Below, one piece after another: positions 33,857-58,800 of a DNA stretch of 64,000 bases. The stretch is taken from IMG/VR virus record IMGVR_UViG_3300023176_002545; one strand, given 5' to 3'. Positions within the stretch are counted from its first letter, which is position 1. Every line of letters starts with the position of its first letter. The DNA comes from a virus. The notes beneath the pieces were generated by a model. That model saw only the letters and a list, made by a program, of their open reading frames with translations. It had not been told where the DNA came from and searched no databases. A program made the translations under genes and the position numbers.

Positions 33857-33857
33857 T

Positions 33858-36365: not shown

Positions 36366-37275
36366 GTTTACTGTTAGCATAAACCCTACATACTTTTGTA
36401 ACTTTCGTTGCGACTTTTGTTATCTTACACCAGAGCAACTAGCAAACAAACATCGTATTAGCCCACAAGAACTTGATCAAAGATTAAGCGAAATAACTGT
36501 GCCTATTACACACGTTGACTTATATGGCGGTGAAATAGGATTACTTGACAAAGATTACTTTTACAGCATTAAAAGTGTAATAAAAAAACACTTTGCTGGT
36601 ACTATAAATATTAATACTAACTTTAGTGCAAGACCGGATTTCTTTTTAGACGACGATGTGCATGTTAGTGTGAGCTATGATTTTGAAGCACGTGAGCTAA
36701 GTGACACTGTGTTAAGAAACATATTATTGTTTCCTAAAGATGTAAGTGTACTTGTTTTAGCAAGCCCAAAAGTATTAGCAACAGACGTAGACTTTATGAT
36801 TAACACATTTAATATGGTTCAGAATATTAAGTGTGTTGAGATAAAACCTTACAGCACTAACCAAGCAAATGCACACCCTGTTACACACAAAGACTTTGAA
36901 GAACACGTTAAAAAATGGATAGAGTCACCAATACAAAAGCAATTTGATTTTGTAAATGTTGACGAGTTAGAAGATGTATTAGATGGAAAACGTAATGCAT
37001 TTTCAAACGATCATGTTTATATTACTCCAGATGCTAAGTTTGGTGTGCTAGAGTTTGATGACAATGATAATGAATATTTTGAAAAATATAATAAATTTGA
37101 AGATTATCTATTTTGGGCCGATCAAGAGCCAACAAAAAATTTAAGTCCTATATGTCATAGTTGCGAATACTATGGAAAATGTTTAACAGAACATTATAGA
37201 TTTGTACATGACTTAGATAATGGATGCAATGGTTACAAAGGATTAATAGACTGGTATGCTAGACTGGAAGATTAG
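36358..37275 (+). CDS. radical SAM protein 3
   Basis: CNFRCDFC, YGGE; C-terminal CHSC...KC...C. Confidence 0.88.
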   Translation: MTEFTVSINPTYFCNFRCDFCYLTPEQLANKHRISPQELDQRLSEITVPITHVDLYGGEIGLLDKDYFYSIKSVIKKHFAGTININTNFSARPDFFLDDDVHVSVSYDFEARELSDTVLRNILLFPKDVSVLVLASPKVLATDVDFMINTFNMVQNIKCVEIKPYSTNQANAHPVTHKDFEEHVKKWIESPIQKQFDFVNVDELEDVLDGKRNAFSNDHVYITPDAKFGVLEFDDNDNEYFEKYNKFEDYLFWADQEPTKNLSPICHSCEYYGKCLTEHYRFVHDLDNGCNGYKGLIDWYARLED

Positions 37276-37675
37276 ACAACAACTTTTTAATTCTACTGCG
37301 GAAGAATTTACAGACGACTTAAATTTAGTTAATATTCGCACAGAAGAAGATAGTGTTACTTGGGCAGTAAAACACTTTAACGAACGTGTAGACGAATGGG
37401 TATATCCTGCTAAAAGTTATTTTGTAGCAATATGTTATGCTTATTGGATTAGTTTAGATTTTCGTTACGACTTTATTGAACTGCTAGACGACAAAGACTT
37501 GTTAGCAGGCAACGATCCATACTTTAAAACTTATAGTGAAGATAAAGCAACTTACAATGCTATACTTGATCAGGTTGAACTACCTGATCCTTCATCTCAG
37601 ATGGGAATGGTGCCCGACGTTCGATCGTATTATGAGGAAGAGATGATGTTTGACGAGTATCCCCTACATAGTTAA
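37256..37675 (+). CDS. hypothetical accessory protein (139 aa) in the radical SAM cluster
   Basis: Overlaps rSAM3 by 20 nt; acidic, aromatic-rich (YPAKSYFVAICYAYWI). Confidence 0.7.
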   Translation: MLDWKIRQQLFNSTAEEFTDDLNLVNIRTEEDSVTWAVKHFNERVDEWVYPAKSYFVAICYAYWISLDFRYDFIELLDDKDLLAGNDPYFKTYSEDKATYNAILDQVELPDPSSQMGMVPDVRSYYEEEMMFDEYPLHS

Positions 37676-38771
37676 AAAATTCACGTATAGGACATACGCC
37701 CGGCGGTAAGTCTCTTGCACGGTTCTTCCAGTCCCATTGTGTATAACAACGAAAACCACAACGATCAAAATAAGGACAACTTAAACAACCTACTTCATCC
37801 ATGTATGCTTGCATAAGGTTGGTGTTGTCTTTTCTAATATATGCATGATTAAAGTCATTGCGTGTATAACGATGCCAACGACAGTTTGCAGTTGTGTTGT
37901 CAGGGAATATTGTGAGCTTGTTTAAACTCATACAGTGCATTTGATTTTTATCTTGTGTTAATAATTCTCTATAAGGAAATACCATAGGATAGTTATCTGC
38001 AATATATTTCATAAACTTCAAATACAAACTATCACTTGGTACTAGATGATCGTAACCTGGATCAGGAATAAAATCATCAAAGAACAAATCAAAATTTTTG
38101 TACAAGTAATCAAAATACTCATCGCCAGCAAACAGTGCGTTAATACTGTCTGTTGTTGCTACTAGGTTAATAGTAGACACATAGTCTTTGAAACGTTCGA
38201 TATTTTTAGTGTATTGTCCGCCTGTAGGACGACCGCTTAGATCATAACTAGCAATCAGTTTACTTGGGATGTCTACTGCATTTAATTTGTCTAACAGTGT
38301 ACGTACATCTTCGTGATATTTGAATAAAAAGTTGCTGACCCAAACTACTTGTATTACATGTCCGTACTTGTCACAGATTTTTTTAATCTCAAGCATTAGA
38401 TCATAATACATAGGATACAGTGTTTCTCTTGCACGGTCTTGAAACAGCTCTCCGCCTACCATATTAAACTGCATAGCATGTACTTTGCCTTGCATCTTTT
38501 TACAGTGTGCTTCTACTAGAGGAAGTTTAGCAAGCATTTCAGGATATGTCATGCCCACTGTACTGTCTTTGTCATGAAAGCAAAAGTCGCACACAATAGG
38601 ACAGTTTTCAAATAGAGTGATTTCTATTTCGCCAATAAGAGGACGCTTACGCTCTAGTATCATATGCGTAACTGCATTTGCTGCTTGTTGTTCCGGAGTG
38701 TCTAATAAATGATCGTCGGTAACATTTTCAGGCATTAATGCTTTTAATATTTCTGTGCCACAACCGCCCAT
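37560..38771 (-). CDS. radical SAM/SPASM-like protein 4
   Basis: CPIVCDFC, VGGE; C-terminal HC...NCRW...CLSC...CGFRC...C. Confidence 0.9.
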   Translation of the reverse strand: MGGCGTEILKALMPENVTDDHLLDTPEQQAANAVTHMILERKRPLIGEIEITLFENCPIVCDFCFHDKDSTVGMTYPEMLAKLPLVEAHCKKMQGKVHAMQFNMVGGELFQDRARETLYPMYYDLMLEIKKICDKYGHVIQVVWVSNFLFKYHEDVRTLLDKLNAVDIPSKLIASYDLSGRPTGGQYTKNIERFKDYVSTINLVATTDSINALFAGDEYFDYLYKNFDLFFDDFIPDPGYDHLVPSDSLYLKFMKYIADNYPMVFPYRELLTQDKNQMHCMSLNKLTIFPDNTTANCRWHRYTRNDFNHAYIRKDNTNLMQAYMDEVGCLSCPYFDRCGFRCYTQWDWKNRARDLPPGVCPIREFFNYVGDTRQTSSLPHNTIERRAPFPSEMKDQVVQPDQV

Positions 38772-39895: not shown

Positions 39896-40964
39896 TATAG
39901 CTCTCCAATACACGTAAAGGATATACACAGTCTTTAAATTTATAGTGTTCCATATACTTTAGTACATGTTTACTCATACATATTTCTCTACGACTACAAT
40001 TTTCACAACTTGTAGTTTCTGATAGGTAATCTAGCTGTTCTAAATATAATGTTGTTTTTAAATCAGTCCAACTTTTAATGTCTGTAGGATTTTGCACACG
40101 AAACTCATCAGTTTTTATTAGTGCTGCTTCATAAACAAACGGAGTTGAATAAAACTCTCCTTGACTGAATGTATAGTTAAGTTCAAACGGACCACCTTGG
40201 TCTTTGTCTGCAATAGTCATTGCAAGATATTCTTTATTTGTATCGTTAAAAGTATTTTCAATAGTCTTAACCCAGTCATTAATTAAACGTTCGTGTATTA
40301 CACCTTTGCTGTAACGTTGATAGCTAGGTAGTGTTTCCAATATACTTTCGTATTCATCACGCACTATGCGACTTATTTCTGCTAGATTTTCAATATTGCT
40401 ATCTATATTAAATGTAATGTAATAATCTACAGGATCAGTAAACTTGTTTAGTACTTCATGTATACGTGCAATGTTATTTTTTCTATATGTAGGATCTAAA
40501 ACTTGTTTAGGATCTATTACAACTTGGAAACCATATAGAAAATCATCACGCTTTGGTATACTGTTGAACTTCTCTATAACTTGGTCAATGTATTTGTCGT
40601 CTGCTTGCAGTGTACTTGGCATTTCAATAGTAGTACAACGACTTACTAGCGTTCTAAAGTTTTCGTAATCTAGTAAATCTAATATATTCAAGTTACCAAA
40701 CACATCTGTAGGACCAATGTTTACACTTGTAAAGCGTATATTGTTAGACATAAACAGTTCTTGTGCATCAAGTACCTTTTGAATGTCTTCGTTTGTAACT
40801 TGTTGACGTCTACGATTAACAAAGCACCCTGCACAGTTATGTATACAACCATCAAGAACGTCTAGAGTCATGTTTACTTTTATTTCGTGAGCATTTGCCA
40901 CACCAATATTGTAATCTTCGTGTCCTCTAGTTGTTTCCCAATAGTTATTTTTTACGATTGGCAT
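39885..40964 (-). CDS. divergent radical SAM-like paralogue 6
   Basis: LDGCIHNCAGCFVNR, IGPTDVF; C-terminal CENC...C...C. Confidence 0.8.
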   Translation of the reverse strand: MPIVKNNYWETTRGHEDYNIGVANAHEIKVNMTLDVLDGCIHNCAGCFVNRRRQQVTNEDIQKVLDAQELFMSNNIRFTSVNIGPTDVFGNLNILDLLDYENFRTLVSRCTTIEMPSTLQADDKYIDQVIEKFNSIPKRDDFLYGFQVVIDPKQVLDPTYRKNNIARIHEVLNKFTDPVDYYITFNIDSNIENLAEISRIVRDEYESILETLPSYQRYSKGVIHERLINDWVKTIENTFNDTNKEYLAMTIADKDQGGPFELNYTFSQGEFYSTPFVYEAALIKTDEFRVQNPTDIKSWTDLKTTLYLEQLDYLSETTSCENCSRREICMSKHVLKYMEHYKFKDCVYPLRVLESYNAT

Positions 40965-42126
40965 GGTATACTTTCTTTATTTCTTCTAGTCGTTCATCGC
41001 CGTCTTCAGTTACTAAGAACTTTTTGCGATAACCTTGCTTGTCTGCTTCAACTGAATAGTCTGTCCAGTCATACATTTCTGCTGCACTTTTATTATAGTT
41101 ATAAATGTTCTTCATCATATTTTCTTTAGGTGCAATACAAGTGTCTACACCTAAGTAATCACGTAGTAATATTACTTTTCTGTTATAACAACTAAAGAAC
41201 AAGTCGCAATTTTCACACTCTGTACCTTTTGCACGTTCCATTTGTGTTAGTGTCTTGTAATATGCTTCGTCTAAGTCCTTAACTTCAAACTGTTCATCAT
41301 ACAATGCCATGTTTTCATACATAAATGGACTCAAATACCACTTGCCCTTCTTAAAGTTAAGTACTGTGTAGTTGTGTCCAGCATGAGAATGGTCAACCAT
41401 GATGTTGTTTAGATGAGTGTCTTCAGGTAGTGCTTCAAAAAATGCATTAAACTGGTTAAGTGTACGCAATATTATGTTAGGTTTATGGCTACGACTAACA
41501 CTTGGTATAAAGTCAATGGTAGTATCAAACTCTTTAACTACAAAATCATGTATTTGTTCATAGTCTAAGTCATATTGTCTAATGTTTACAATGAATGTGT
41601 ATGTACATTCGTGTTTTAGGTTAGCATCAATGTACGCAATACAACGTTTGAGCTGTTGTATGTACAATATGTCCTTGTAACGCATTGGATCTGTTGCAAT
41701 ACCTACCTCTATTTCAGTATCAGTGTTAACATTGGCGTGTAAGAAGTTAATCCAACGCTCTAAGTAGCTCATGTCTTGCTCTAAAAAGGTTGTAGTGAAC
41801 GCAAGTATAGGAGAGTTTTCATTTATCATAGACAACAAGTCGGGATCTTGCATTACTTGGTAAAAGTTTTCGCTAGACAGGCAGTCTGTTGGGCCTATTA
41901 GTACTTCATCTACTAAAATTCCCTTGTCAGTTATGCGTTTTACAAACTCACGGCACTGTTTTAAGTGATTTTCTTCAGGAGCATTGCCTCTACGGTGTAC
42001 AAAACAGCCCGGACAAGCGTGTATACACCCGTCTAACACATCTAATTGTATTTTTACGGCACTAACTGGTTTAGTTTGTGTTTCTGTTGTTAGCTCGTAG
42101 TACAAGTTGTTCTTAATGACTGGCAT
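40945..42126 (-). CDS. divergent radical SAM-like paralogue 7
   Basis: LDGCIHACPGCFVHR, IGPTDCL; C-terminal CENC...C...C. Confidence 0.8.
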   Translation of the reverse strand: MPVIKNNLYYELTTETQTKPVSAVKIQLDVLDGCIHACPGCFVHRRGNAPEENHLKQCREFVKRITDKGILVDEVLIGPTDCLSSENFYQVMQDPDLLSMINENSPILAFTTTFLEQDMSYLERWINFLHANVNTDTEIEVGIATDPMRYKDILYIQQLKRCIAYIDANLKHECTYTFIVNIRQYDLDYEQIHDFVVKEFDTTIDFIPSVSRSHKPNIILRTLNQFNAFFEALPEDTHLNNIMVDHSHAGHNYTVLNFKKGKWYLSPFMYENMALYDEQFEVKDLDEAYYKTLTQMERAKGTECENCDLFFSCYNRKVILLRDYLGVDTCIAPKENMMKNIYNYNKSAAEMYDWTDYSVEADKQGYRKKFLVTEDGDERLEEIKKVYHANRKK

Positions 42127-43141
42127 TTAGGTACTCCTTGGGCAATACACACTCTGTTAAACCTCTATCTTGCATGTAAAACAGTACATTACGCTCTGCA
42201 CAGCTCATTAAATGAGGACAACTTGCACATTCTTGAGTATTTTCAGCATATGCAAGGTTGCGAGACAAGAAATCATCACTGTTTATGTTTTGTACTTCAA
42301 AGTTTGGTGTACGTTGCAGTATAGCATCGTACAAAAACGGATTCATATACAGTTTACCATTGTAAAAACTGTAGTTAGAGCATCCATAGCCATTAAACTG
42401 TGCATCAAACATAGTATACAGGCTTTTGTACTTGGGGTCAATCTTTTGTTTGCTTAGTTCTTGTATAAACATTGGCAAATATTTACTTACTTTGCCTCTG
42501 CTGTTACGATCGTTAAGGAAACTTGGTAGTATAACTACAGGAGCATTGAAATCTTTCATGGTCATATCACATAAATGATTGTAATCAACACTATCAAATA
42601 TGCCTGGATAGTAGTTTACTCTAAACTGCACACTGCCTTGTTTAAACAGTTCAAGTTTGCGACACATATCTTCAACATCGCCCTGCAAGTAACGTTCAAT
42701 GTCGAGCACTATCTTAAAGTCTATGTCAGGTGTGCGATCTAGTCCTTCGTAAAGGCTCCAAATCTTAGTGTGTTTAGCAAGTATTGTGTTGTAGTCCTGT
42801 AGTAGCGTTGAGTTAAAACTTAATGCTGCAATGTTGTACAAGCGTTTCATACTAGGATGCTCCATCAACTCCCAAAAGTTTTCAGCATCAAATATATCAG
42901 TAGGTCCTATTACAACATCGTCAGGTGTATATGCACTAGATTCTAGTATATCACAAAGAGTTGTTAAGTGATCAGCACTGGTTAAGTTTTTGCGTGGAAT
43001 AAAACAGCCAGGACACTGTTGACTACAGCCGTGTAGTATGTCAGCATGAACTTCAACCCTAAGAAAGTTGTTATCCTTAGGGCTTACACCTTCAACGTAG
43101 TTATTAAATCCTGATGGAGTTGCGTTTAAGTTAACGAGCAT
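42113..43141 (-). CDS. divergent radical SAM-like paralogue 8
   Basis: LHGCSQQCPGCFIPR, IGPTDIF; C-terminal CASC...C...C. Confidence 0.8.
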   Translation of the reverse strand: MLVNLNATPSGFNNYVEGVSPKDNNFLRVEVHADILHGCSQQCPGCFIPRKNLTSADHLTTLCDILESSAYTPDDVVIGPTDIFDAENFWELMEHPSMKRLYNIAALSFNSTLLQDYNTILAKHTKIWSLYEGLDRTPDIDFKIVLDIERYLQGDVEDMCRKLELFKQGSVQFRVNYYPGIFDSVDYNHLCDMTMKDFNAPVVILPSFLNDRNSRGKVSKYLPMFIQELSKQKIDPKYKSLYTMFDAQFNGYGCSNYSFYNGKLYMNPFLYDAILQRTPNFEVQNINSDDFLSRNLAYAENTQECASCPHLMSCAERNVLFYMQDRGLTECVLPKEYLNASH

Positions 43142-44312
43142 TGACGATTTTCAAGGCATCGTCATTCCATTGCTCTGTGCTGTCAATAAACGGATTGTAC
43201 ATTTCAAGTACTTCTAGCGGCATCAGGCACTCATGCATATTCATAGCGTCTTGTGCTTGGAATATCAGTCTGTTTGCACATGCTACAGCATACTTACAAT
43301 CAGCACAATCCTTAACAGTGGAAGACTTTGCCAAGCCTTTTGCTATTAGTTGATCCCTCTTTGCCAATATTTCTTCAAAACTTAAACCTGTTACTTCTAA
43401 TTCTTTATGTTGTGTAAAGAACGCTTGTTCGTGTAGCATAACATTTAGGAATACACGAGGTGCATCAAAGCCAGGAATAATAGTTAGCCCTATGAAGTTC
43501 ATTGAGTTACAGTACAAGTTAGCCATACTCATTGTAACATCAGCATAGTTATCTTGATCTACTACTTCTTTTAAGAAGTTGTTCCATGCTACTAGATTCT
43601 TACGCTGGTGTAATACACTTGGTGCTCTAGAGAACGCAGGGTTCATTTCTAGAATAGTTTCGTAATCTTCAAGAATCTTGTATAGCAGTTTGTTGTAGTT
43701 TTCTTTAGTTAGATGTTTTTGCATTACATTACTTGCTTGTAATGTCCAACTCCAGTCAATGTTTTTAGGAGTTTCATTTGCAAAGAACTCTAGTTTTGCT
43801 TTTATGTCTTTGAAATATTCTTCATCATTAAGTATACGGTCAATATCACCTACTGGCATAATAAACTCAATGATCATTTCATCTCTGTATTTTGCAGGAT
43901 CGTCAAGTATTGAAAATACTTCACGTAGTCTTTCCATGCTTACATCGTCTATTTTGCTAGGTGTAGCAATACGTGCTTTTGTATGTTCACGCATGATATC
44001 CTGTATAATAGGATTGTTAAGAATATTGTCTGTATTATTTGCTGAGAAAAGATCAGTTGGACCAATAACAAACTCACGTAAATTAAGTCCTGTGCGTGTT
44101 ACGCCGTCTGCAAGTTCTTTTGCAGTAGTTAACATTGCATCCATTGTAGCAACGTCTTGATTTTTGTTAACAAAACAACCTAAACAACCATGGTTACAAC
44201 CAGTGAGTCCTTCAAAGTTAATTAGTACGTCAAACTTTTGTGCATGACTAGGAGGTAGACTCTCAGGTCCACTGTATCTCATCTGCTTGCAGTATGATTG
44301 TTGCATTGTCAT
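43131..44312 (-). CDS. divergent radical SAM-like paralogue 9
   Basis: LTGCNHGCLGCFVNK, IGPTDLF; C-terminal CADC...C...C. Confidence 0.8.
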   Translation of the reverse strand: MTMQQSYCKQMRYSGPESLPPSHAQKFDVLINFEGLTGCNHGCLGCFVNKNQDVATMDAMLTTAKELADGVTRTGLNLREFVIGPTDLFSANNTDNILNNPIIQDIMREHTKARIATPSKIDDVSMERLREVFSILDDPAKYRDEMIIEFIMPVGDIDRILNDEEYFKDIKAKLEFFANETPKNIDWSWTLQASNVMQKHLTKENYNKLLYKILEDYETILEMNPAFSRAPSVLHQRKNLVAWNNFLKEVVDQDNYADVTMSMANLYCNSMNFIGLTIIPGFDAPRVFLNVMLHEQAFFTQHKELEVTGLSFEEILAKRDQLIAKGLAKSSTVKDCADCKYAVACANRLIFQAQDAMNMHECLMPLEVLEMYNPFIDSTEQWNDDALKIVNAR

Positions 44313-45019
44313 TCTGTTATTCCCTCATCAAATAATTCTAGCATATTATTTGCAACACCATGTTTTATTAATGTGTTATATAAGTCAGCACCTTGATACT
44401 TACTTTCATTGTTAAAAACTCTAACATTTAAGTTACTAGTTGGCCACGGACCAAACTTATGTCCTAACAAATACAAAACATCAATAGCATATGTTGCTAT
44501 ATATACAATATTTAGCCCGATTTCTGTATCACTATCAGTGTATTCTAACTCTTCTGGCACAAGTTCTTTATACTTGTCGTTATATTTGCTGGCTTGATCA
44601 ATACAGAACAATGCAACGTGTTGCATTTTGTCTAACAAATCGTCAAATAATTTTCCATGTTCATTAATATACTCGTCGATCATATCATTTGACCACAGAG
44701 TATTCATTGCAGCATCAACATTGTTATATTCTTGACCTAATTTTCTTTTTGCAATTAGTGCTATAATTCTAGCTAGTAAAGGTGCTTCAACTAGAAAATT
44801 AATTTTAATATATTCATTTAGTAGTTCTGCATCAACAGTGTCAAACTGTACTTTAAAGTTTGTGTTAGCAATATAGACTAAGATATGTTTTACAGATAAT
44901 ACTTTTTTACTTTCTTCATAATTTACATGAAGAGTGTAATCATCACTATCTGCTTTGATCTTATAAATTTCTGCTAGATCTGTTGGTTTTAAAGGTAGTA
45001 TATAACTTTGTGTTGACAT
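44309..45019 (-). CDS. hypothetical accessory protein (236 aa)
   Basis: ATGA-coupled to paralogue 9; no recognisable motif. Confidence 0.7.
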   Translation of the reverse strand: MSTQSYILPLKPTDLAEIYKIKADSDDYTLHVNYEESKKVLSVKHILVYIANTNFKVQFDTVDAELLNEYIKINFLVEAPLLARIIALIAKRKLGQEYNNVDAAMNTLWSNDMIDEYINEHGKLFDDLLDKMQHVALFCIDQASKYNDKYKELVPEELEYTDSDTEIGLNIVYIATYAIDVLYLLGHKFGPWPTSNLNVRVFNNESKYQGADLYNTLIKHGVANNMLELFDEGITE

Positions 45020-45027
45020 TGTGTCTC

Positions 45028-46080
45028 CTATACCAGTGGTTTTACTTTAAACAGCAAATACGGTATACGACTCTTACGCTTGTAGAAGAATTCTACTTCA
45101 CTCCAAGCATTTCTAAGTGCTTCGTTATTTGCAAAATTAAATCCGCCCTCTGCTATTTGTACTACAATAGGAATAGTTTTAGCAAATTCTTTGTATACTT
45201 CTTCATATTCCCAATCTTCGTGGTTGTTAATGAGTTCTAAGAGTTCAGCATTATTGCCAACATCGTTCCAAAAATCTCTTAACACATAAAGTGCTTGCAT
45301 GCGATTTTTATTTTGGAATGTATCTTTAACAAATTGTACTTTGTCCCATGATGAATTACCGTTTGCATGGAACCAATCAATAATACCGTTAATAACACTA
45401 ATATAACCAATTTTATTTTGTAGCATACCAATTACTTCATCAATCATTTTTTCACTGTGAACAGTGAATTTTTCACGCAAATGATTTTGTGTTACTAAGT
45501 TAATTTCTGCATACGTTTCATTTTCGTTATACTTGTCATTAATAAAGAAAAGTATATCATAACCCCAATGTTTACTACTTGGAGTGCCCATGTTATGCCA
45601 TTCATTTTTAGCGTAAACATCTTCAACACAACCGTTAATATCATTTTCTGTAAATGTAGTGTATGTTGCGTATGTAATATCTCTTTGGAACACTAACTTT
45701 AAAAAGTCTTTTACTACATCTTTAACATCTTTGTTAGTTGCTGTTTGTAGTAGAGATGCAATATACTTTGCATATACACGAATTAAATCTAATGCATCAT
45801 CAAATAATAAAAACTCTTTGTCATTGTTTGACAAATATTCCCATGTGTTTATTTGATCAGTTGTAGTGAACGAAAGCATATCCGGATTTGCATTAGGATA
45901 ATCTGTAAGTAGTGTATTAACATACGAGTCTCGTACTTGTGAGTGTCCTTCCGGTGCTACTAACACCATTTTTCTTGTTTGATCGCCTGCCCAAGGACTC
46001 TCTGCTAAAGCACTTACCATAGAGCTAGACTTTCCTAAATATTTCTTATTGTTGATATAATAAAAACTTTCACCTATCAT
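45028..46080 (-). CDS. hypothetical accessory protein (350 aa)
   Basis: TAATG-coupled to the upstream CHxS-repeat gene; no recognisable motif. Confidence 0.7.
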   Translation of the reverse strand: MIGESFYYINNKKYLGKSSSMVSALAESPWAGDQTRKMVLVAPEGHSQVRDSYVNTLLTDYPNANPDMLSFTTTDQINTWEYLSNNDKEFLLFDDALDLIRVYAKYIASLLQTATNKDVKDVVKDFLKLVFQRDITYATYTTFTENDINGCVEDVYAKNEWHNMGTPSSKHWGYDILFFINDKYNENETYAEINLVTQNHLREKFTVHSEKMIDEVIGMLQNKIGYISVINGIIDWFHANGNSSWDKVQFVKDTFQNKNRMQALYVLRDFWNDVGNNAELLELINNHEDWEYEEVYKEFAKTIPIVVQIAEGGFNFANNEALRNAWSEVEFFYKRKSRIPYLLFKVKPLV

Positions 46081-46463
46081 TATCTTCTTCCCCTTGAGCC
46101 GTGACAGCTATAATGGCAACTACTATGACAGATTCTCCAATCAAAATATGTGTTAGTTAGTCTGCCTTCTATTTGGTTAACTGTGCGTGAAATACAGTTA
46201 GTTGCAAAATTTTGTACCTCACTTGCATATACTTTTAGATTATCTCCAATGTTATTTGGAAGATCTGCTGTACTATATGTTCCTTGTCCTGCGTTTACAT
46301 ACTCATAACGTCTGTTACCGTAAGCAGTTCCAGAACCCCAACCACTTACGTTTGCATAATAGCACGTAGCATTGAAGTTAATAGTCTTGTCAAAAGATCT
46401 AAGACGTAGATACGCATTGTTATAGTATCTTGTTTCTAAAGAAGCGTGTGACTCGCCTGCCAT
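46080..46463 (-). CDS. candidate precursor/substrate protein A2 (127 aa) ending CHSSCHYSCHGSRGRR
   Basis: C-terminal (CHxS)3 repeat; paralogue of the next gene; in an operon with the rSAM genes. Confidence 0.75.
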   Translation of the reverse strand: MAGESHASLETRYYNNAYLRLRSFDKTINFNATCYYANVSGWGSGTAYGNRRYEYVNAGQGTYSTADLPNNIGDNLKVYASEVQNFATNCISRTVNQIEGRLTNTYFDWRICHSSCHYSCHGSRGRR

Positions 46464-46837
46464 TACCTTCTCCCTCTACTGCCGTGACAACTATAATGGC
46501 AACTTGTATGACAAATACGAAAATCAAAATACTGATTAGTTATTCGACTTTCGATTAAATCACAAGTTCTTGTTATAGCATTTAGTGCCTGGTCTATCAT
46601 ATGTCCTGCATCTACTAGTGTAGTATTGGGATACACGTTTCCGTTGTAATCACTGTTAGGAGCATTTACATACTCATAACGTCTGTTACCATATGCAGTA
46701 CCTGCGTTGTAACCGCCATAGTTTTGATTAGTATAAACTGTGGCTGCTACGTTTACAGTTTTATCAAACCCTCGCAATTGAGCACCAGCATTGCCGGTAA
46801 AATAATCTCTTGCGGATGTTCGATTCATGTTTCCCAT
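46463..46837 (-). CDS. candidate precursor/substrate protein A1 (124 aa) ending CHTSCHYSCHGSRGRR
   Basis: Shares FDKT.N, GTAYGNRRYEYVNA and YFD.RICH.SCHYSCHGSRGRR with A2; starts 3 nt after the giant fibre stop. Confidence 0.75.
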   Translation of the reverse strand: MGNMNRTSARDYFTGNAGAQLRGFDKTVNVAATVYTNQNYGGYNAGTAYGNRRYEYVNAPNSDYNGNVYPNTTLVDAGHMIDQALNAITRTCDLIESRITNQYFDFRICHTSCHYSCHGSRGRR

Positions 46838-46840
46838 GGA

Positions 46841-49800
46841 TTATACCTTAACTTCAACTACATCTGTACCGTCTTCAATAGCAACACCAATTAATAATGT
46901 GTATTCTGCTATAGTACTTAGTTCGTCTATAGCACGGCCTGCACCGTCCTGATCAGCAATAATATACTGACCTTTCTTAGCAGAACCGTTAATCTTACAT
47001 GGAACACGACCTTTTAGTGCAACGAACGGCCACATTGGATCATCTCTGTTATCGTCTGTTTGGTTCATCATCAAACCTGGCTGTGTTGATACAACGCCTG
47101 CTAGTTTCATGCCTTCTTTGTATAGTGTAACTTCTTTGTCGCCACCAATACCTAGTACTGTACCTGGAGCATACACTGCGTCTGCTTCGTATTTCTCTGC
47201 CAAGTCAGCCCAGTTAGCACTTGCTGCTGTACCTTGATAAACACCGCTGTTGTCAACGTATGAAACATCTGTACCGTCACGTCTAAACTGAACAATACGA
47301 TCGGAGTTAGCACCAGCTGCCATGTAGAATCTGTTAGCATGATATTCAATCTTACCAACGTCATTACCTGGGTTACCAGTCCATGTTTCGTTTGCGTTTT
47401 CCATAAAGCGGATGCCTGGTGAGTTACCATCATTGTTGTATGAACGTAGTGCCCAGTTACCATCTTCGTTTAGGAAACCTTGTGATGCATCGTCTGCATA
47501 TAGTCTACCATAGATAGTGTTTGAACTGTTGTTTAAACGTAGTTCACATGATCCAGTATTTGCAGAACGGAACGCCATTGCGTTTGTTTCATTTGGATAA
47601 ATGTGCCAGCCTGCGTAGTTGCCACCTTGCCAGTAAATACCTGAGTTGCTTTCAATGCGTACCCAGTTATCAACATATAGCTCGCCTGCAATGTTTGCAC
47701 CGTCGGAACGTGTTTGAACTTTCCAACTACCATTGTGCATCATTTCAGTTTGGCCGCCGTGTACACCGTAGAACAACCACTGGTTATTTACATCGTTGTA
47801 GATACCAGTTGCTGTACCGCCATCATGCATGAATACTGCACGACCATCAATGCTAAAGCCTTCCCAGTTACCATAACCACTACCGCTAATTTGGATTGAA
47901 CCGTAGTCGCCTGTTGGTTCTCTTAAGTAACGTGTAGTTTGGTTACCAACTGCAATAAACTGTTTAACAACTAGTCGACCATCTGTTGTAAGTGCCATAG
48001 CACCAGCTGCTACGCCGTCACCATCATGTCTCCACTTCCAACCACGGTCTGTGTCGTTGTTCATTGTAAAGGTCATTGCATAGTCATTCAACCAACCCAT
48101 TGTTTGACCACTAAACATACCAATTGAGTATGAGCTGTTGTTCCAAACACGTAGTTTGTCGTAACTATCGCTGCCTTCGCCGTCAATGTAACCAATGTTA
48201 TAACGTGTGCCACTTGCAAACAAGTCTGGGAATGTACCAGCGTTTAGATTGCTTGCATTACGGAAGAATGCACTATCATTACCATCTAGTAAGTCTGCAT
48301 CTAAGCCGCTGCCGCTACCATCGTTACCAGCATGCCATACTTTGTATGCATTAGCACCCATTGACCAACCGCCAACTGCTAGATCGTTTGTACTTCCGTC
48401 TAGACCAAAGTGTACAGCATAGTCGCCACCAATATGGAATGTTAAGAATGCATCATATTGGTTAGCACCGTTACCTTGATATAGTTGTAATGTGTTAACT
48501 TCACCAGTGTTTTGAATTGTTGTTGCAGGAGCACTAATTGTAAACACACCGCCACTAAATGCAGCACCAGTATCAACACGTAGGAAGCTACTTGCATGCA
48601 ATCCGTCTAGTAGGTCTGCGTTTAAGCCTGAACCTGCACCGTCGTTAGCGTCAGTCCAAATAGCACCGCCGTTAACATAACCAGTTGTAGCGTTAAAGCT
48701 ACCATTAACATCTAGGTTATAAGTACCGCTTGGATCTTTGTTAATACCAACTTTACCATCACCGCGTACTGAGAATACAATGTTACCATTAGTTTGACTT
48801 ACGTCATTGTTAACACGGAAGAATGTGCTTGCCGCAGCATTGTTTGAGTTAGTGTCAAGTCTTACGTTAACGTTGTTGTAAGAGTTAATGCTTAAACTAT
48901 CGCCAGCACCCCAAGTATCGTTACGTGAACTAATACCATGGTTTACATAGCCGCCAATTGCACCGTAGTTTCCATCCCAGTCAAAGCTAATGCCATGTAC
49001 TTTTGCAAGTTCGCCTGTTGTGCCACCGCTTGAAATAAAGCGTCTATTAGTGTCAATAGTTTCAACGCCGCCTACATTATAACTGTTACCGTCAATAGCA
49101 CCAGTTAGTGTAAGTTCAGCAGCAACTAAGTTACCACCAACGTACAAGTTCTTACCAAAGCTACCACCACCGTCTACACGTAAAGCACCTGTTGTAGTGC
49201 TTGTTGCTTGGTCAGCGGAGTTAACGTGCAAGTAACCACTTGATGCACCAATGTCAATAGCAGTTGCAGCACCACCAATGTTGAGTGTAGTAACTGTATC
49301 GTTTAATAGATCAAATGTTGCTTGGTTAGTACCCAAACTACTTGCTTGTGTAATAACGTTTTTGTTAAGTCTAATAGCATCGCCTGCGAAACTTGCTACA
49401 AGTTCGCTTGTTTGGATGCCGCTACCTGAACCAATACTTTCGGAACCATAAATGTTAACTATAGCACCAGTACCTGAACCAGTACCTGGGTTTGGTTTTA
49501 GATTTAGTTCAGAACCGTTAACGTTAAACTGTCCAGTAATTGGACCTTTTACACCAATTGTACCTGATTGTTTAGAACCTTGTGAACCTCTACCAAACTC
49601 TAGTTTGTGAGTATGTGCATCAGTACCACTTACTTCAACGCGATTAACTTGTGTTGTTGAAGTACTGCCTGAAGTTCCTGAATAGCCTGTGTCAATAAAC
49701 ACAGATCCTGCTACACCACTACCAGTGCTTGCACCGCCTTGTACTGTTAGATCTGCACCTTGCTTGTTAGTACCTAATGCATTTGGTGCTTTGATTACTG

Positions 49801-52800
49801 AATCAACTGGAGCAGTTTCTACTGCATCGCCACCTACAACCATTGTAGTATTTCTAACTGCTAGTGTACCAGATTTGTCAGCACCTAAAGTAATTAATGT
49901 TGCTGCTCTACCAATACTTAGTGATGTAACTGTAGTATCGTATACAGTTGCACTTGTCTTAGTAGTTTTAATATCACCACCATCAACATTAAAGTCACCG
50001 TCAATTTGTAGGTTACCTAGTGAATCAAGAACCATGCGTTCTGCTAAGAAGCCTGCTGCCATCAAGTTAAACTTGAAGCTAAAGTCTTCAGAACCAAACG
50101 TTACATCTGATGCAACAGCGTCAATAGTACCACCAACTTCTCTGTTGTTGTTTGCAGTTTCTACTTGGAACTGCATACCAACACCAATACCTACTGCTGG
50201 TGTGTTAGAAACATCGTGACGTATTTCAAGTGGTCTTGAAACACCAAAGTTGTTAGTATCTTCTACGAACGGAGCAACGTCATTTGACCATGCTGGGTTT
50301 CCTAATTCGTCAACAACCATAACAGCACCTTGGCTACCAATTGGTAGTCTGTTTAGTGTTGTTGGTGATGTTGCATAAATCATATCACCTGCAATATACT
50401 GATCAAGTGCTGTACCACCTTTGTTAACAGGCACAGGGTTTAACATGTTACCTGGATCTAAGAAGTATTGACTGTCTAGTCCGTCAAGTGTACCTGCATC
50501 AAGTACGCCTGCTTTTAGTTCAACTTCACCTGAATTTACATTAAACTGTGCTTTGCTGTATGAAGCAACACCTTCGTTTGTAAAGCTCTGATTACCTAAT
50601 GTATCATCTGCTCTGTCAATATCAAGTTGTGTATCTTTATAATAGAAGTTTTGTCCACCGCTAGTATAGAAGTTACCAGTAATGTTTAGTGGTGAGTTAA
50701 GTGCTGTTCTTGTAGTTCTTACTGCATAATCCCAGCTGCTGTCACCTTTTAAGTATGTGTTACTGTTAGCAGAACCAATAGATGCAAGTCTTGATGTACT
50801 AATAACACCCGAAACAATGTTTGAAGCATCAACGTTTGCACTACCAGTTAGTGCCCAGTTTGCAGAATTTTTACTTGAAGTATTAATTTCGCCGTAAACT
50901 GTGATATTCTGATGGATAAAGTCTGCACTACCACTACCAGTTTGAACAAAGTTAATTGCACCTTGTACAACACCGTTTACACTGTTTAGAGCATCTTCTC
51001 TAAATTCGTGTACTGTGAAAGTGTTTTGACTTACTGTACCTGCGTAGTAGTAAGATCCACTTGACATTCCTGTTGGAGGGTTAGTACCTACAAAGCGGAA
51101 TGCTCTACCAGCTGTAAATCCGTGGTTTGGTGAGTAGATCTTATCTTTACGTGTGTCAACGTTGTTGATAATAAGTGCATGTGTACCAGTTGAACTTACA
51201 GTAAAGTTAACTTTTGTACTTGCATTTAAATCATACCTGTTGTATAATTCAATAGTGTTAGCATCAATTACTTTTACAAAGTAACTTTCACCCTGCAACA
51301 TACCTCCAATTGGAGTGTTTGGTGAGCTTGCATAGTTAACAACGTCACCGTCATCAAATATATGACTTGTTATTTCAATCTGTGAATTTGCATAGTCAAC
51401 ATTACCACCGTTTGCTAGTGTATCTGCATTAAATGCATTAAGCGAGTTACCACCTAGTGCAACAGTATCAACTTGTGCATTGTTATCTTCAATGTACTCG
51501 TTAGTACTTGTTGATGCAACAAACTTGCCTGCAAGTAGATCAACATACAGTCTGTTGTCAACGCTAAGTGCTGAAATTTGGAAAGCTGAACTTGACTGTC
51601 CGCCTAAGTTTCCTGTTGCTGCACTCAATACATCTGTTGTTGTATAACCACTACCACCTCTAACCAAGTCAACGCTTGATACTTGGCCGTTAGTAACTGT
51701 GATATCTGCTCTTGCACCAGTACCTGAACCGTTAACATTTGTTAGTGGTACGTTGTTATATGTTAAAGAACCTGTTGTAGGAACATAACCTGAACCGTTA
51801 CTAATATTTGCTAAGTCAACTGCAAGTAGTACACCTTCAGCTTGTGCAGTAACAACACCTTGTGTTTTTGAGTTAGCTGCTGTAACAGTTACACCGTTTG
51901 TAAATGATGCTCCAGCAGGCTCATATCTCAAATACTGACTGTCACTGTCTTGAATCATTGTGTACTGAATATCACGTGTTTCAGATGAGCCAGTGTTTGT
52001 GATGTATGTTGTAGTGTTGTTGCCATTTTTGCTTAGTGTATTAGCACTAATATTGTTGCTAAATGTGCCAACAATGTTTGTTAGGTAAACAGTAGTTGCA
52101 CCACCGTTGTCTTCATCAACAATAGCAGTAGCACCTGTGTTTGCTTCAACAATTACATCATCTTCGTTAAACTGTGTTGGAGCACTTAGAGTAAACAGTG
52201 TACGTGGATAACGTTCTTGTGCAATGTCACCCTGTAATGGCTCTTGTGGTGGAATATCATCAGTTAGATCATATCTACCAAATTTTGTGTTTGTAGTGAA
52301 CAAACTAAAGTTACGTGTTGCAGGAATAATATCTGCGTTCAACAAACCTTGTGCGTTCATTTGTGGAACAGCACCACTAACTGAGTTAGTAGATACGCTC
52401 TTATCAATAAAGTCACCTAGTCTGTTTGCTAAGAAGCTACGCTGTGCCAACTGTGTTGTCAAACGTGTATCTGTAGCACCACCTGGTTCGTTGTCACCTA
52501 GTCCTGGATCAGTTGAAATTGCTTCAATAACAACATCTGAAACTGCAAGTTTCAGTGCTGAAAGTTCACCAACTGTAACTGTGTTTTTAAATGTAATGTT
52601 ACCAGTTCTGTTTTCTGCAACAATGAAGTCACCAACTTTAAAGTCACCTAGTTCGTTAGTACCTGAAGAGTAAACTCGTCCTGGTAAGTCACTAAACTGT
52701 TCGTATTCTTCTCTTGTAATACCACCGTTCTGTGGTAGAGCGTTATAGTCTGTACCAGAACCTGCATATTCCCAAGTGTGTGATGAACTGTTAACAATTG

Positions 52801-55800
52801 AAGGTCTATGGAAACGTATAAATGTTCCCTGTAGGTTACCTGTGTTAGTTAACACACCACCAACAATAGTTGGATCAATAGTAAACTCTGCTGTGTACAA
52901 GTCTGTTCTAGAAGTAAAGCCTGTTACAGCAATGTTACTTTGTGGAATAGCACTACTATCATTGTCAATGATAGAAGTAGCATCAAAGAAGATTCTTGTT
53001 AGAGAACCGCTGTTTTCTGCTTTTTCTACTGAAACAGTAAGTGTGCGTGTTGCTGCTTCATATGTATAAACAAACGCTTTGTTTCTGTAGATACCAGTAG
53101 TTGCTTCAATAAGGTCGCCTGGGTTAAAGTTATAAGTTCCAGGAGCAAGTGTTAGTACTTGATACTTGTTGTGTGTTAGCTTGTTACCATCAGCGTCTTG
53201 AATAATATCATCAATGAAGAATTCTTCTGTTTGTGTTTCAAGCAAGTGATCACCACTTGACACTGCAACTAGATCTGCAACAAATCCTCTTGAATCATCT
53301 TGATACAATCTAATAATGTCATTAGTTAGAACTTCAACATAGTATAGACCTTGGTCAGCAAGTCCGTTAATTTCAATATTGTTGTTTCTGCGATATGTTA
53401 CAGCATCACCTGTTACAAGTCCGTGTCCAACAATAGTAATTGTGTTAGCAGCAAGATCCAACGAACCTTCTTCATATACAGGATAGTTTGTACCTGTAAA
53501 TGTTATTTCAGTTAGTGTTGCGTTATCATTAACTAGCGGAACTGCTGCTACTGTAATTTCCAATGCACCGCTGGTATTATCATAGACTGCATTTGTAATA
53601 GCCTGTGGACTATTAGCATTGTTAATATCAACAGTACCTCCAGAAACATAAGTTCCTAAGTTTCTACCTGCACCAACTTGAACAGTAAATGTTGTTGCTG
53701 TTACTGATGCTACTGTGTATGTTGCAGTATCACCGTAAAGTGTTCCAACTTCACCGCCGTTAAATGTTATTGTACTTGGAATAGTTTTGAAACTATTAGT
53801 AATATCATTTGCTAAGTTGTTTTCTTCGTCATCGTCATAGAAGCGTAAGATAAACTGGTTAACTGGAGTACGCTTAGTACCAACAGTAATAAGTTTTTGC
53901 TGTGATGCTTGAGCACCGACTTCTGCAACAACACCGCGGTCAAACACAAAGCTGTTTGCTGAGTAACCTGATGAACGTAGTGCATACAAACCAAAGTTAG
54001 TAGCAGAGTTAGTAACAGAAAGGTAAGCACCTGACTGACACCAACAACCGTTGCCTAGGAAGATTTGGAAACACGAAACGATCTGTGCATATGCATCGTT
54101 AGTTAGACGCCAACCAGTACCACCAAATGATAACATGGTGTATGCGTTTGCAACCATTGACTTACCTTGTTCAGGTGTTTCACCAAATACTGGATTCTCA
54201 GCTTCGATAGCAAAACGTGGAATGTTTGGTGTAATGACCTTTGAACCGTCTACCAAACAGCCGCTTAGTCCTAAAAACGAAATAATAGACACGTTCTGTA
54301 CGTATGGTGACTGTGTAATAAGTGGACGTTCTCTTAGTCCTACATAGCCTGTACGATCAACACCAGTATCAAACGGATCGTCAAATGCTGTACAGAATCT
54401 ACCTGTAAAGCTAGGTACGTTAAATGCATCTAGACCGTCTTTGAATGTAATACCCAACAAGTAACAACCATTACGTACACGGAAAATATCTTGGTTAGCA
54501 TTTAGCGGACGAACAATAGTTGTACGCAAGTTATCACCAACAATAGATACATAGTCTGGAATAATAACTGGGTTATCTTCTTTGTATTCACCAGTTGATA
54601 CCATAATGGTTGTGTAACTGATGTTAAACGCACCTTCAACTTCTGTTGGAATGTTTGGTGAGCTAGGACCGTTTTCAATAATATCAATAATAGTGTTGAA
54701 TTCTGACTCAACAACACCTACTGTAGTTCCTTCAACATTCTTAGTTAGATCAGTAATCTGTCCAACTTGATTTTGATATAGTTTAGTGTTTACAACATTC
54801 TTTAGAATGTTATCTACAAGAGTTTGGAAGTATCTATTAGCAAGTATTGTTTGGAACTTAGTATCACCCGGAATAACAAGTGTAGTACCGTTATAGTATG
54901 CTTTACCTGCTTCAATAGCACGTTCGTTACCACCATAGATCAAATCATATTGGATAGCATCGATAAACAATCCAACGTCTCTGCGACAGAACGCAACATC
55001 ATATACAAAGTTAGTAAAGTATGTGTTAATGTAACTAACAACTTCAGCTTGGATGTATGCTTTGTTTAGTGCAATCAAATCAGCTGCATTAAGAATGTTT
55101 GTATCATCTGTTGGAACAATAGCACTTCTTAGTACAGTAATATTTTGTGATGCACTTACACCATCAATAATAATATCTTCAATTATGTCGCCAAGTTCAC
55201 CAATTGTAGTAACTGCTGCTGCACCACCTGGGTTCAGTGTGTCAGTAACTTGGGTTGAGTTAGTTTGCCAACTAACAACTGGATAGTTTTCAGCAACCTG
55301 TTGTGCAAGTCTAATTGCATGCATAATACCATCAACTGTTTGTACAAGCTGGCGAGCAAGTGCAAACTGGCTGCTTTGTTTAAAGTAAGCAATCGCTGCT
55401 GCAACAGAGTTTGTAGTTCCGCCCCATGTTAGGTCAAAGTTAATAGCATCTAGAATGTAACCAACATCACGTCTACATGTTGTTTGGTTGTAGTTGCTTG
55501 AGAAGTTAATCCAACTTCCGTCAACATATGCAACAGTTTCTTTTTGGATGAAAGTTTTGTTGCTTGTGATCAATGAATCAGCATTAACGTATTCTGTTGC
55601 TGTGTTTGCTGAACCGTTTGCATTTACAGTAATGTACTGTGATGTTCCGTCTGTTACAAGATCAATAATAATATCAAGTAGTGCTCCAATAGTGTTTGCA
55701 CTTGTGATGTCGCCCGGGTTTGGTCCATCAAATACTTGGCTTTCGGCTGAGTATGTTGGGCTTACTGTAACATTACGTACAACCTGTGTTGCAAGAGTTT

Positions 55801-58800
55801 TTAAGTGATTTAAACCATCAAGTGTTTCTGATAACTGTCCGCTGATAACAATAGCAGCATTTTGTTTATAATATGCAACTGCGGCTGCAATACTATTTGT
55901 ATTACCACCGTGTGTCAGGTCATATTCAACAGCATCAAGAATTAATCCAATATCTCTACGACATGATGTTTGATCGTAAGTTAAACCTGGATGTTGAGCA
56001 TTAATATATTCAATAACTTCTTCTGTAATAAAGTTAGTGTTAGACTGTAGCAATGCTTCAGAATTTAATGCACCAGTGTTTGTTGTTTTTGTAAAGCTAT
56101 TTGTTGTACCAATACCGTTTTTAAGTATAGATATAACATCGTTAGTACGATCATAAACTAATTGTGCTACTGTATTGTTGCTTGGAGTTGCACCGTTAAG
56201 TGTTTGTGTAAATGTATTTTGATACAGATTAGGAACAGTATTTTGCAATACAACATTTGCTAAAAGATCTCTAGTATATTCTAGTGCATCAACTGTAGGC
56301 TGTAATTGAGCTTTAATAACCTCAACAGCATCACCTGTAATTTCGCCTGTTCCAGTAGTAACATTGTTGTAGTAACTAATACCAGCAAAAATACTTTCAG
56401 CATTACCACCGTGTTTAACGTCATATTGAACTGCGTCAACAATTAGGCCAACGTCACGCTCACATTTAACAGGATCATAGTTAAAGTTACCAAAGTTTTC
56501 TTCAATAAATGCAACAGTTTCTGCTTTAATAAATTCTACGTTAGCTGCTAGTATAGCATTTGCATTTATTACATTTTGTACTAAACTTGGTACAGAGTTA
56601 TTTGGATCAATATTTAAACCAATAGTAGCACTGTCGCCATCGTTAATAATATCAACAATTAGTGTTTGTAATCCTGAAATAGCAGTTTGTGCCGACGCAT
56701 CACCTGGATTAGATGGATCAGTAAACTGTCCAAATGTGCTTTGATAGCTTTGTGCAGGAGCTTGGTTTACAATTACTAGTTTAGCAAGATCAATAGCATA
56801 GTTAATACCGTCAAGTGTTTGTGTTAACTGGCTGTTAAGTGCAGTACTTGCACTATATTGATAGTAGGCTAGTGCTGCTTGAATACTTTCATTATTACCG
56901 CCATGTGTTATATCATAACGTATTGCGTCAAGAATTAATCCAACATCTCTGCGGCACTTATTTTGATCATATATAAACAAGTTAGCATCAACATATGCAA
57001 TAGCGTCATCAATTAATGTAGCTTTGTTAGTATTGATTTGTAATGCTGCGTCTTGTAATTGTTGGTCTGCCCAAGATATACTTGGGTAAGTTTTAGATGG
57101 TAAATTGTTAAGGTTACCAGCAGTAATAACATCTTCAATTATTTGTAGCAAGCCGTCGAGTGTTGTTGCTTCAGTGCTAGTTGCATTACCGCTTGAGAAG
57201 TTTTGTGCAACTACTGCTTGTTCAGCAGTTACTGAAATACCTTGTACTACATTGCTTACATGACCTGCTAAGAAGTTATAAGCATCAGCAGTAATAGTAG
57301 CTTCGCCAGCACCTAGTTGACTTGCTGCACCTACAAAATATGATTCAGCAGCAAGAACAGATGCACTGTTACCACCATAAACAATATCATAAGTTAAAGC
57401 GTCTACAATATATCCTACATCACGTGAACATGCTGCTGTATCGTATGTGTGTGAAGGATAAGTGTTTGCAATATATGCAAGTACCTCTGCTTGTAGGAAG
57501 CTTCTGTTAGCTTGTAGTTGATCTCTTGCGTCACTTAAATCTTGGCTTGCACCAGTTGGGGCAGGGAATGTTAATGCATTTGCATTACCTACACCATTTT
57601 GTAAAATATCTATTACTTCGTCAAATGCAACAGTTGCTCTAGTGCTTGCTGTTGACCAACTAGACACATCGCTTAGTGCAAGAACATCTGTTTTAAGATT
57701 ACCAATTGCTCCTACAGTTAGTGTTAATTGATTGCTTTGTAAGTATGCTGTGTTTGCACGTTGATACGCTAAACCTGCTGTTACAGCATTATAGTTAGTA
57801 CCTAGTGCAATGTCTGCTGCTACTGCATCTAGTATTAAACCAGAGTCTCTACGACATTTAGTTTCATCGTAAGTTGACTGATATTGTGAATCTAAATAAC
57901 CAATAACTTCTTCTTTAATGAAGTCAGTGTTTTGTGTAATAAGTGTATCAGAATTAAGTCTAGCTGTGTCAGTAGTTATTACACCGTTTGCAGTACCAAT
58001 GCCTGTGTTTAACAAGCTATAGATAATGCTAAGATTATTATAGATTGTTGTTCCTTCTGCAGATGTGCCAGGAGTTAAACTTGTATCTTGTGCTACAGTG
58101 TTCTGATATAGATAATCAACAGTTTCACCTAGTACAACTTTTTGTGCAAGAGATCTTGCATAGTCAATACCTGCTAGTGTTTGAAACTTTTGATCAGAAC
58201 GTACTAAAGATGCTTGTGCATTTAGATATGTAATACCAGCATAATGCGATTCTGCATTACCACTGTATAACAAATCATAGTTTGCAGCATCAATAATTAA
58301 TCCTGTATCACGTGAACATTTTGCAGCATCAAATTGGAAGCCGCTGTATTTTTGATTTAAGAATGCAATAACTTCATCTTGAATAAATGTTTTGTTAGCA
58401 TCTATAAGAGTTTCTGCATTTAATATATCTGTATCTTGTGTTTGTGTTTCGTTAGGTTGAACACCACCAGTGTCACCTGTGTAGTAACTTAAAACTTTAT
58501 CACCAAGTGCTGAAACTGTTGCTGATTCAGATGCTGTTGCAGTTTTAGTACCATCAAATTGCTGCTGTACTGCTGCTTGAGTATTATCTGTAATAGCAGT
58601 GTTAGTAACTACTGCTGTTGCAAGTTCTTTGATACGACGAAGACCATATTCAGTTGCAACGTCTTGTGCTTGTTTAACTAGTGCTGAACTTTCTAGTGCA
58701 TAGAATGCACCAGCAACGCTTGAAGCTGCATCGCCGCCATAGCGTAAATCGTTTTCAATAGCGTCAACAATTAATCCAACATCACGCTCGCATTTTGCTT

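Follow-up and report, generated by a model that had tools for sequence, protein, structure and literature searches.

A conserved Cys-His tail in jumbo-phage proteins as a candidate substrate of a multi-enzyme radical-SAM cassette

Background

Among the radical S-adenosylmethionine (radical-SAM) enzymes with a SPASM domain, PapB, SCIFF/CteB and QhpD install thioethers, and the QhpC substrate is a protein. The minimal SPASM enzyme anSME, which lacks the RRE (the recognition element of RiPPs, peptides made by the ribosome and modified after translation), acts on full-length protein at C/S-x-P/A-x-R. CrpC and CrpA provide a precedent for SPASM radical-SAM thioether installation on a whole protein (PMC13692751). 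In the triceptides, SPASM-type radical-SAM enzymes crosslink tandem aromatic-x-X units, as done by HaaB and by HtkB, which joins His-C2 to Lys-C-beta (PMC11499958). In the His-Xaa-Ser (HXS) antiphage system, the HxS-repeat protein HxsA is matured by the radical-SAM enzymes HxsB and HxsC plus HxsD, and blocks phage DNA entry; a +8 Da modification maps to an S-H-x-S-S unit, the His and Ser of which are essential (PMC13128918). Here we describe a family of phage proteins with a comparable C-terminal repeat and a large set of radical-SAM genes beside it, starting from a tandem gene pair, A1 and A2, in a 64,000-nucleotide stretch of DNA (the window) from an uncultured virus, IMG/VR record IMGVR_UViG_3300023176_002545.

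We regard it as reasonably probable that the Cys-His tails of this family, called T below, are substrates of protein-level, RiPP-like enzymatic maturation in virion proteins. This is the best explanation because the flexible tail is invariant and inseparable from SPASM-type maturases across otherwise dissimilar lineages, and also because no other candidate substrate was found and T, unlike the enzymes, was detected in virions. We infer from this association that modification takes place, and the matured product would be a rigid end-piece, possibly metal-binding or covalently anchoring.

The tandem pair A1 and A2

The two genes and the codons of their tails lie on the minus strand of the window as follows.

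46463..46837, minus strand: A1 (T-up), 124 amino acids, a predicted folded alpha/beta body plus a flexible tail
46466-46513, minus strand: A1 tail codons, encoding CHTSCHYSCHGSRGRR
46080..46463, minus strand: A2 (T-down), 127 amino acids, a paralogue of A1
46083-46130, minus strand: A2 tail codons, encoding CHSSCHYSCHGSRGRR

The A1 stop codon overlaps the A2 start by one base, as does A2 with the next gene, a350. The first-pass annotation of this DNA had described two tandem paralogues with a near-identical C-terminus and nearly identical DNA at 46098 and 46481, and both statements were confirmed: A1 and A2 are 51% identical by BLASTP (E 3e-39), and the 24-mers at these two positions differ by one base. 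Its view that the N-termini have diverged is too strong for the pair, where the identity extends over the full length; invariance of the tail alone is a property of the wider family. Both proteins end alike in CH(T/S)SCHYSCHGSRGRR and share GTAYGNRRYEYVNA. In each, the last 16 residues read (Cys-His-x-Ser)x3-Arg-Gly-Arg-Arg, followed directly by the stop codon. At the DNA level the CH..CH..CH pattern occurs twice in the window and in none of 100 dinucleotide-preserving shuffles, and CH..CH is absent from every other open reading frame (ORF) of at least 60 amino acids in the window.

Over their last 25 codons the two genes show 8 synonymous and 3 non-synonymous differences. Since eight of the changes are synonymous, the shared tail DNA is maintained by selection on the protein and not by recent gene conversion. 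In a tree of 67 short-subfamily proteins (see below), built with a quick method, upstream and downstream copies separate, with 3 label changes against ~22 when the labels are shuffled, and within the clade that includes the window, the downstream copies fall into one group with 99% support. The duplication is old, with both copies retained, which would fit two non-redundant partners, either in a hetero-oligomer or at two sites. A Pfam match of A2 to Phage_30_8 (E 0.0044) was dismissed as chance, as only 1 of 56 family members has it.

A family defined by its C-terminus

A word-indexed homologue search returned close relatives only; an exhaustive profile search gave 75 clusters with mutual identity below 50%. 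About 70 of the 75 finish in C-H-x-S/N, C-H-x-S/N/A, C-H-x-S/N/A, R-G-R-R and stop. An alignment of homologues had been proposed in the first-pass annotation as a check on tail-only invariance. In our alignment of 69 T sequences, with a mean column identity of 12%, every invariant column lies in the tail, three being Cys, three His and three Arg. Across 163 distinct tails, the fourth position is Ser in 98%, 87% and 97% of first, second and third repeats, respectively. The body, in comparison, is free to vary from ~100 to ~300 amino acids, with a short T subfamily of ~125-140 amino acids, to which A1 and A2 belong, and a long one of ~180-296. Fused forms longer than 519 amino acids were not found, which is weak evidence. 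In two metagenome proteins (P0026 and P0031) the tail stops after one or two CHxS units and unrelated sequence follows; these are probably frameshifts or assembly errors and not variants.

A scan of IMG/VR gave 424 pattern matches, from which 140 loci were confirmed, and 80 of these were retrieved for neighbourhood analysis. The motif strings had no match in the literature searched. In the jumbo-phage papers the enzymes appear merely as accessory genes, and radical-SAM maturation of a phage protein tail is described in no paper that we found.

An AlphaFold2 model of A1, computed with a 56-sequence alignment, has a confident body composed of a helix (residues 6-22), a long hairpin (25-55) and a second helix (77-98). 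Confidence falls in the tail, where the predicted local distance difference test score (pLDDT) drops from 62 to 51, which is consistent with a flexible tail. For the T fold, Foldseek against the PDB gave nothing usable, the wide VIA-align search reached a best Z of 6.1 with generic helices, and a T profile search of PDB sequences had no match. The first-pass annotation had proposed a core motif on a long leader or structural scaffold. The scaffold holds, in that a folded body carries a constrained tail tied to radical-SAM/SPASM enzymes over more than 80 loci; a short leader does not.

Conserved linkage to a radical-SAM cassette

All 80 IMG/VR loci with enough flanking sequence have, within 10 kb of T, 3-8 ORFs of at least 230 amino acids that combine an N-terminal CX3CX2C with a later CX2CX5C. 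By all-against-all clustering, the radical-SAM ORFs fall into single-copy orthologous groups. The core common to both T subfamilies consists of a JmjC_2 cupin, R4, T, a236, a protein of ~360 amino acids, R0, R6, R5 and 139p, and also includes one to five 2-oxoglutarate (2OG)-Fe(II) oxygenases. In the long-T subfamily the gene order is cupin, R4, T, a236, ~360-amino-acid protein, R0, R6, R5 and 139p, and it is identical in RSL2, Atu_ph07 and pPa_SNUABM_DT01, which belong to distant phage lineages. The placement of R4 directly beside T, as found in this subfamily, is probably the ancestral arrangement. Five further radical-SAM paralogues (R1, R3, R2, R7 and R8) are confined to the short-T subfamily, as is the second T. 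A giant protein is encoded upstream of T in most phage loci. In the window, the following genes make up the remainder of the island.

46841..59506, minus strand: 4221-amino-acid fibre-like giant protein, directly upstream of A1 with a 3-nt gap
45028..46080, minus strand: a350, 350-amino-acid accessory protein of unknown family, kept in the short-T subfamily (48 loci)
44309..45019, minus strand: a236, 236-amino-acid accessory protein, once per locus in 82 of 86 loci
43131-44312, minus strand: R1, radical-SAM, one of five tandem paralogues
42113-43141, minus strand: R3, radical-SAM, one of the five
40945-42126, minus strand: R2, radical-SAM, one of the five
39885-40964, minus strand: R7, radical-SAM, one of the five
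38771-39928, minus strand: R8, radical-SAM, one of the five
37560..38771, minus strand: R0, core radical-SAM, with a single orthologue at each of 72 loci from both subfamilies
37256..37675, plus strand: 139p, highly conserved core protein of 139 amino acids, unknown family
36358-37275, plus strand: R5, core radical-SAM
35331-36365, plus strand: R6, core radical-SAM
34306-35331, plus strand: R4, core radical-SAM with a SPASM domain above the curated cut-off
33843-34319, plus strand: JmjC_2/cupin protein (PF08007), core cassette
33299-33856, plus strand: 2OG-Fe(II) oxygenase (PF13759), core cassette

These genes form two converging operons. The plus-strand operon (33299-37675) encodes the oxygenase, cupin, R4, R6, R5 and 139p; the minus-strand operon (59506-37560) runs from the fibre gene through A1, A2, a350, a236, R1, R3, R2, R7 and R8 to R0, with no terminator-like site on that strand between the fibre gene and the enzymes. 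The 3' ends of 139p and R0 overlap by 116 nt (37560-37675), such that the two operons end inside each other. Nearly all gene junctions overlap, therefore leaving no space for a hidden small peptide gene in the window's island, and no other Cys/His-rich ORF that could compete as a substrate was found there. Directly upstream of the oxygenase gene, and overlapping it by 38 nt, is a Nudix hydrolase gene (32884-33336, plus strand; PF00293, E 1e-14), which falls outside the conserved core in the locus clustering. A dihydrofolate reductase gene interrupts the cassette of the RSL2 group, between radical-SAM genes (16506-17042 in locus L001).

The fibre-like protein has nine C-x-R-D-x-G repeats. Elsewhere this repeat turned up only in giant proteins encoded by the closest relatives of the window, with 2-5 copies within the parts fetched; it was not found at the remaining 70+ cassette loci. 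The repeats were thus ruled out as the common substrate of the enzymes, being limited to near relatives of the window.

All nine radical-SAM enzymes carry CX3CX2C at residues 11-57, so close to the N-terminus that an RRE domain would not fit in front of it. The 7-Cys SPASM pattern is complete in R0 and R4 and occurs as a CX2CX5CX2C variant in R6. R5 and each of the five paralogues show only one 4-Cys twitch-like auxiliary motif, which in the paralogues is a C-terminal CX2CX5C..C cluster. The Pfam Radical_SAM cut-off was passed by R6 only (36.3 bits against 29.5), the other enzymes being sub-threshold, and R4 passed that of TIGR04085 (SPASM) with 29.3 bits against 27. The top full-length matches of R4 were DarE, anSME and PapB (E ~1e-10), followed by weaker ones to HxsB and cyclophane synthases, with its maturase matches an order of magnitude under the family cut-offs. 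The enzymes score far below the ScfB, HxsB, HxsC, PapB and anSME cut-offs; judged by sequence, they are peptide- or protein-type maturases outside every characterised family. A phmmer search of PDB sequences with R4 and R0 was uninformative. The cupin scored 29.6 bits on PF08007 (JmjC_2; gathering threshold 22) and the oxygenase 65.6 bits on PF13759 (2OG-Fe(II)_Oxy_5; gathering threshold 27).

For the accessory proteins a236, a350 and 139p, no relatives were found in Pfam, NCBIfam or PDB sequences. The a236 model is of high quality (pLDDT 93, predicted TM score 0.91), and in BFVD it retrieved its own orthologues only, including Atu_ph07 gp169 at a template modelling (TM) score of 0.71. Fold relatives of a236 were not detected by Foldseek in the PDB, by VIA (best Z 4.7) or in the atlas (TM at most 0.36), and an ESM Atlas feature search with a236 and a350 gave nothing usable. 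Several radical-SAM or TIM-barrel proteins appeared among the weak structural matches of a236. A descent of a236, a350 or 139p from degenerate radical-SAM paralogues was ruled out by hhalign against the nine enzyme clusters (probability at most 2.6%), and homology between a350 and the ~365-amino-acid protein that takes its place in long-T loci was unsupported (hhalign probability 9.9%).

A T homologue in the Atu_ph07 virion

The T homologue of Agrobacterium phage Atu_ph07, gp170, has 296 residues and ends in CHSSCHASCHNSRSRR. In purified virions, gp170 (31.89 kDa) was identified by 8 unique peptides with 35% coverage (Table S5, PMC6102473). It was found in gel bands 1-9 with its maximum in band 1, the band in which proteins of 127-139 kDa peak, while other ~30-kDa proteins (gp56-62) peak in band 8 (PMC6102473). 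From this relation between mass and band, band 1 would be the top of the gel. The virion table includes none of the radical-SAM proteins gp165, gp168 and gp171, nor gp169, the a236 orthologue, nor the cupin gp172 (PMC6102473). In one phage at least, T is thus part of the virion, in a high-mass form stable to heat and sodium dodecyl sulfate (SDS). The virion table also lists gp176 and gp177 (PMC6102473). Absent from it is gp180, a 4449-amino-acid "T4-like structural protein" encoded upstream of the cassette in this phage (locus L096; PMC6102473), which may be too large to enter the gel.

Range among phages and bacteria

The cultured phages with T are the RSL2/RSF1/FLC/SURPRISE13/RsoM3USA group, Atu_ph07 and pPa_SNUABM_DT01, all jumbo phages, with Ralstonia, Burkholderia, Agrobacterium and Pseudomonas as hosts. 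In Sinorhizobium phage Phosso, a homologue of R0 is present. The window belongs to an uncultured myovirus with a terminase 54% identical to those of PA5oct-like jumbo phages.

Among 185,579 species genomes, the cassette was found at seven loci. Two of these (L089 and L090), in Rhodobacteraceae bacterium Water_Bin34, have the phage-type layout with an upstream protein of ~1950 amino acids. Given the eight Terminase_6N genes on different contigs of this bin, which looks heavily phage-contaminated, the two loci are probably on phage contigs. The other five (L091-L095) are complete cassettes on contigs of Bdellovibrionaceae metagenome-assembled genomes, with a T of 188-215 amino acids and no obvious signal peptide, a236, 139p, a 2OG oxygenase and 4-7 radical-SAM genes. 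The giant fibre gene is absent at all five, and no Terminase_6N was detected in the four Bdellovibrionaceae genomes, out of five, that were searched. One locus (L093) is flanked by FabH and acyl-CoA synthetase genes. Because these five cassettes are complete but lack the giant fibre, the cassette is probably chromosomal in the predatory Bdellovibrionaceae.

Proposed maturation of the tail and its alternatives

In the scheme that we propose, A1 and A2 would be small virion proteins, probably fibre-associated, each with a folded body that evolves fast and a flexible tail of 16 residues that serves as the substrate of the co-encoded cassette. Once T has been translated in the infected cell, its tail would be modified by the core enzymes R4, R0, R6 and R5 and the five paralogues, probably together with the JmjC/2OG oxygenases and with a236, a350 and 139p as helpers. 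The enzymes would be left behind and the matured T assembled into the particle. By analogy with described systems, the likeliest options for the chemistry would be His/Ser-centred links (of the HXS or His-X-X cyclophane type) and/or Cys thioethers, and conversion of Cys to formylglycine at the C-H-x-S-R unit would be a weaker option.

Several points weigh against this scheme. The three Cys and three His also resemble a metal site. No recognisable RRE domain was found in the enzymes, all of which score under the cut-offs of the characterised maturase families. Virion presence is established for a single, distant homologue of A1 and A2, and the cassettes of the Bdellovibrionaceae lack a fibre gene, such that an association with fibres is not general. 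Disulfides via the tail Cys could account for the gel shift of gp170, since the published loading buffer lists no reductant (PMC6102473), and aggregation may do so as well.

In an alternative that we consider unlikely, the tail is an unmodified end-piece, metal-binding (Zn, Fe or Cu) or disulfide-forming, that docks T to the fibre or oligomerises it. The enzymes would then have some other target, such as the fibre, a different virion protein or a small molecule. Cys and His, the invariant residues, are classic ligands, and phage fibres hold metal ions on His arrays, as in T4 gp37 and gp12; the position of gp170 at the gel top in a buffer without listed reductant fits disulfides. However, an unmodified tail accounts neither for the constant company of T and the enzymes, across more than 80 loci and in bacteria without the fibre, nor for the conservation of Ser and the terminal RGRR, which equals that of the ligands. 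As for the fibre as the enzyme target, its C-x-R-D-x-G repeats occur in close relatives of the window only. The first-pass annotation had offered a metal-binding tip of a small tail protein as its own alternative; the virion location of gp170 favours such a protein, and metal binding without modification stays a live rival. A metal-binding or disulfide-linked tail may also coexist with modification.

It is very unlikely that T is a precursor with a modified tail that is cleaved and released as a small peptide or cofactor, the body being a carrier. The precedents are PqqA and MftA, the precursors of pyrroloquinoline quinone (PQQ) and mycofactocin, in which an invariant core is joined to a variable remainder as it is in T, and in such pathways enzymes also act in series. 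Yet the core cassette contains no recognisable peptidase, the body is modelled as a confidently folded domain of 100-290 amino acids under selection, and the Atu_ph07 homologue is recovered from virions as a protein with 35% coverage. T could instead be a helper of the enzymes, such as an Fe-S carrier or electron donor with a cluster on the Cys/His tail. Radical-SAM enzymes do require a reductant and an Fe-S supply, and three Cys could hold a cluster, but this role is scarcely probable: the homologue is in virions and the enzymes are not, a hypervariable body and a stable tandem pair suggest structural or host-facing proteins and not redox carriers, and no match to a ferredoxin- or flavodoxin-like fold was found.

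A more specific form of maturation, which we hold to be quite unlikely, is that the radical-SAM enzymes forge intermolecular covalent links through the Cys/His units, from T to T or to the giant fibre. Such stapling would account for the maximum of the 32-kDa Atu_ph07 homologue in the uppermost gel slice. If true, it would amount to a covalent joint made by enzymes within a virus particle, and predatory bacteria would employ this chemistry in their attack apparatus.

Modification of the tail in any of these ways would to our knowledge be the first case in which a viral structural protein is finished by RiPP-type radical chemistry. A phage that carries up to nine radical-SAM genes and several oxygenases invests heavily in them, which implies a strong contribution to fitness at the end of the particle that contacts the host. 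The cassette is also common, with 140 confirmed IMG/VR loci in addition to the cultured jumbo phages and the Bdellovibrio-like predators, and the invariant 16-residue tail offers a handle for mass spectrometry and for the discovery of new enzyme chemistry.

Comparison with known systems

The first-pass annotation had listed as established that the tail matches the SCIFF core and the His-Xaa-Ser repeat substrates. Both are resemblances only, as A1 and A2 have no NCBIfam match at E <= 0.1, the SCIFF precursor model included. SCIFF is a peptide of ~45 amino acids with six Cys, whereas A1 and A2 have 124 and 127 amino acids with three tail Cys, and the sole match of R4 related to ScfB is the "not_ScfB" exception model (19.4 bits against 855). 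T also differs from a classical RiPP in being a folded protein of 124-296 amino acids and not a short leader precursor, and no PqqD-like (RRE) match was found in a236, a350 or 139p.

Like the substrates of the thioether systems, T offers Cys-rich period-4 repeats to SPASM radical-SAM enzymes; it differs in having no acidic acceptor (no C-x3-D/E motif), and the cassette enzymes fall far under the cut-offs of the PapB and ScfB-related models. The H-x-S/N/A units of T fit the motif grammar of the triceptides. Here the differences are that T is a folded protein without leader/RRE logic and that a crosslink in it is hypothetical; the synthase models YhhB, AmcB, FxsB and GrrM gave 16-33 bits against cut-offs of 310-445. 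With anSME substrates T shares the spacing of an invariant Cys and Arg in its last repeat, C-H-(G/T/S/A)-S-R, but Pro is never at the third position in the 163 tails and the first two repeats lack the Arg. The anSME matches are full-length but weak for R4 and R6, with R4 at 42.1 bits against a TIGR03942 cut-off of 349.

The T family is closest to HXS by analogy, while being a member of neither SCIFF nor HXS. In both HXS and T, a whole protein carries tandem His-x-Ser repeats (three H-x-S units flanked by basic residues in T) and is encoded with more than one radical-SAM enzyme and a small helper. The repeats of T differ in that each adds an invariant Cys and that they sit at the extreme C-terminus. 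Neither a signal peptide nor a peptidoglycan-binding domain was detected in T, and its cassette has oxygenases and 4-9 radical-SAM enzymes. Against the HXS models T has no match and no cassette protein matches HxsD; R4 scores 33 bits on HxsB (cut-off 370) and R6 23.3 on HxsC (cut-off 267.9). The owners differ as well: HxsA is a defence effector, whereas T belongs to a phage or a predatory bacterium and goes into virions. The T cassette mirrors the bacterial HXS defence, and the same chemistry may therefore serve both sides of the conflict.

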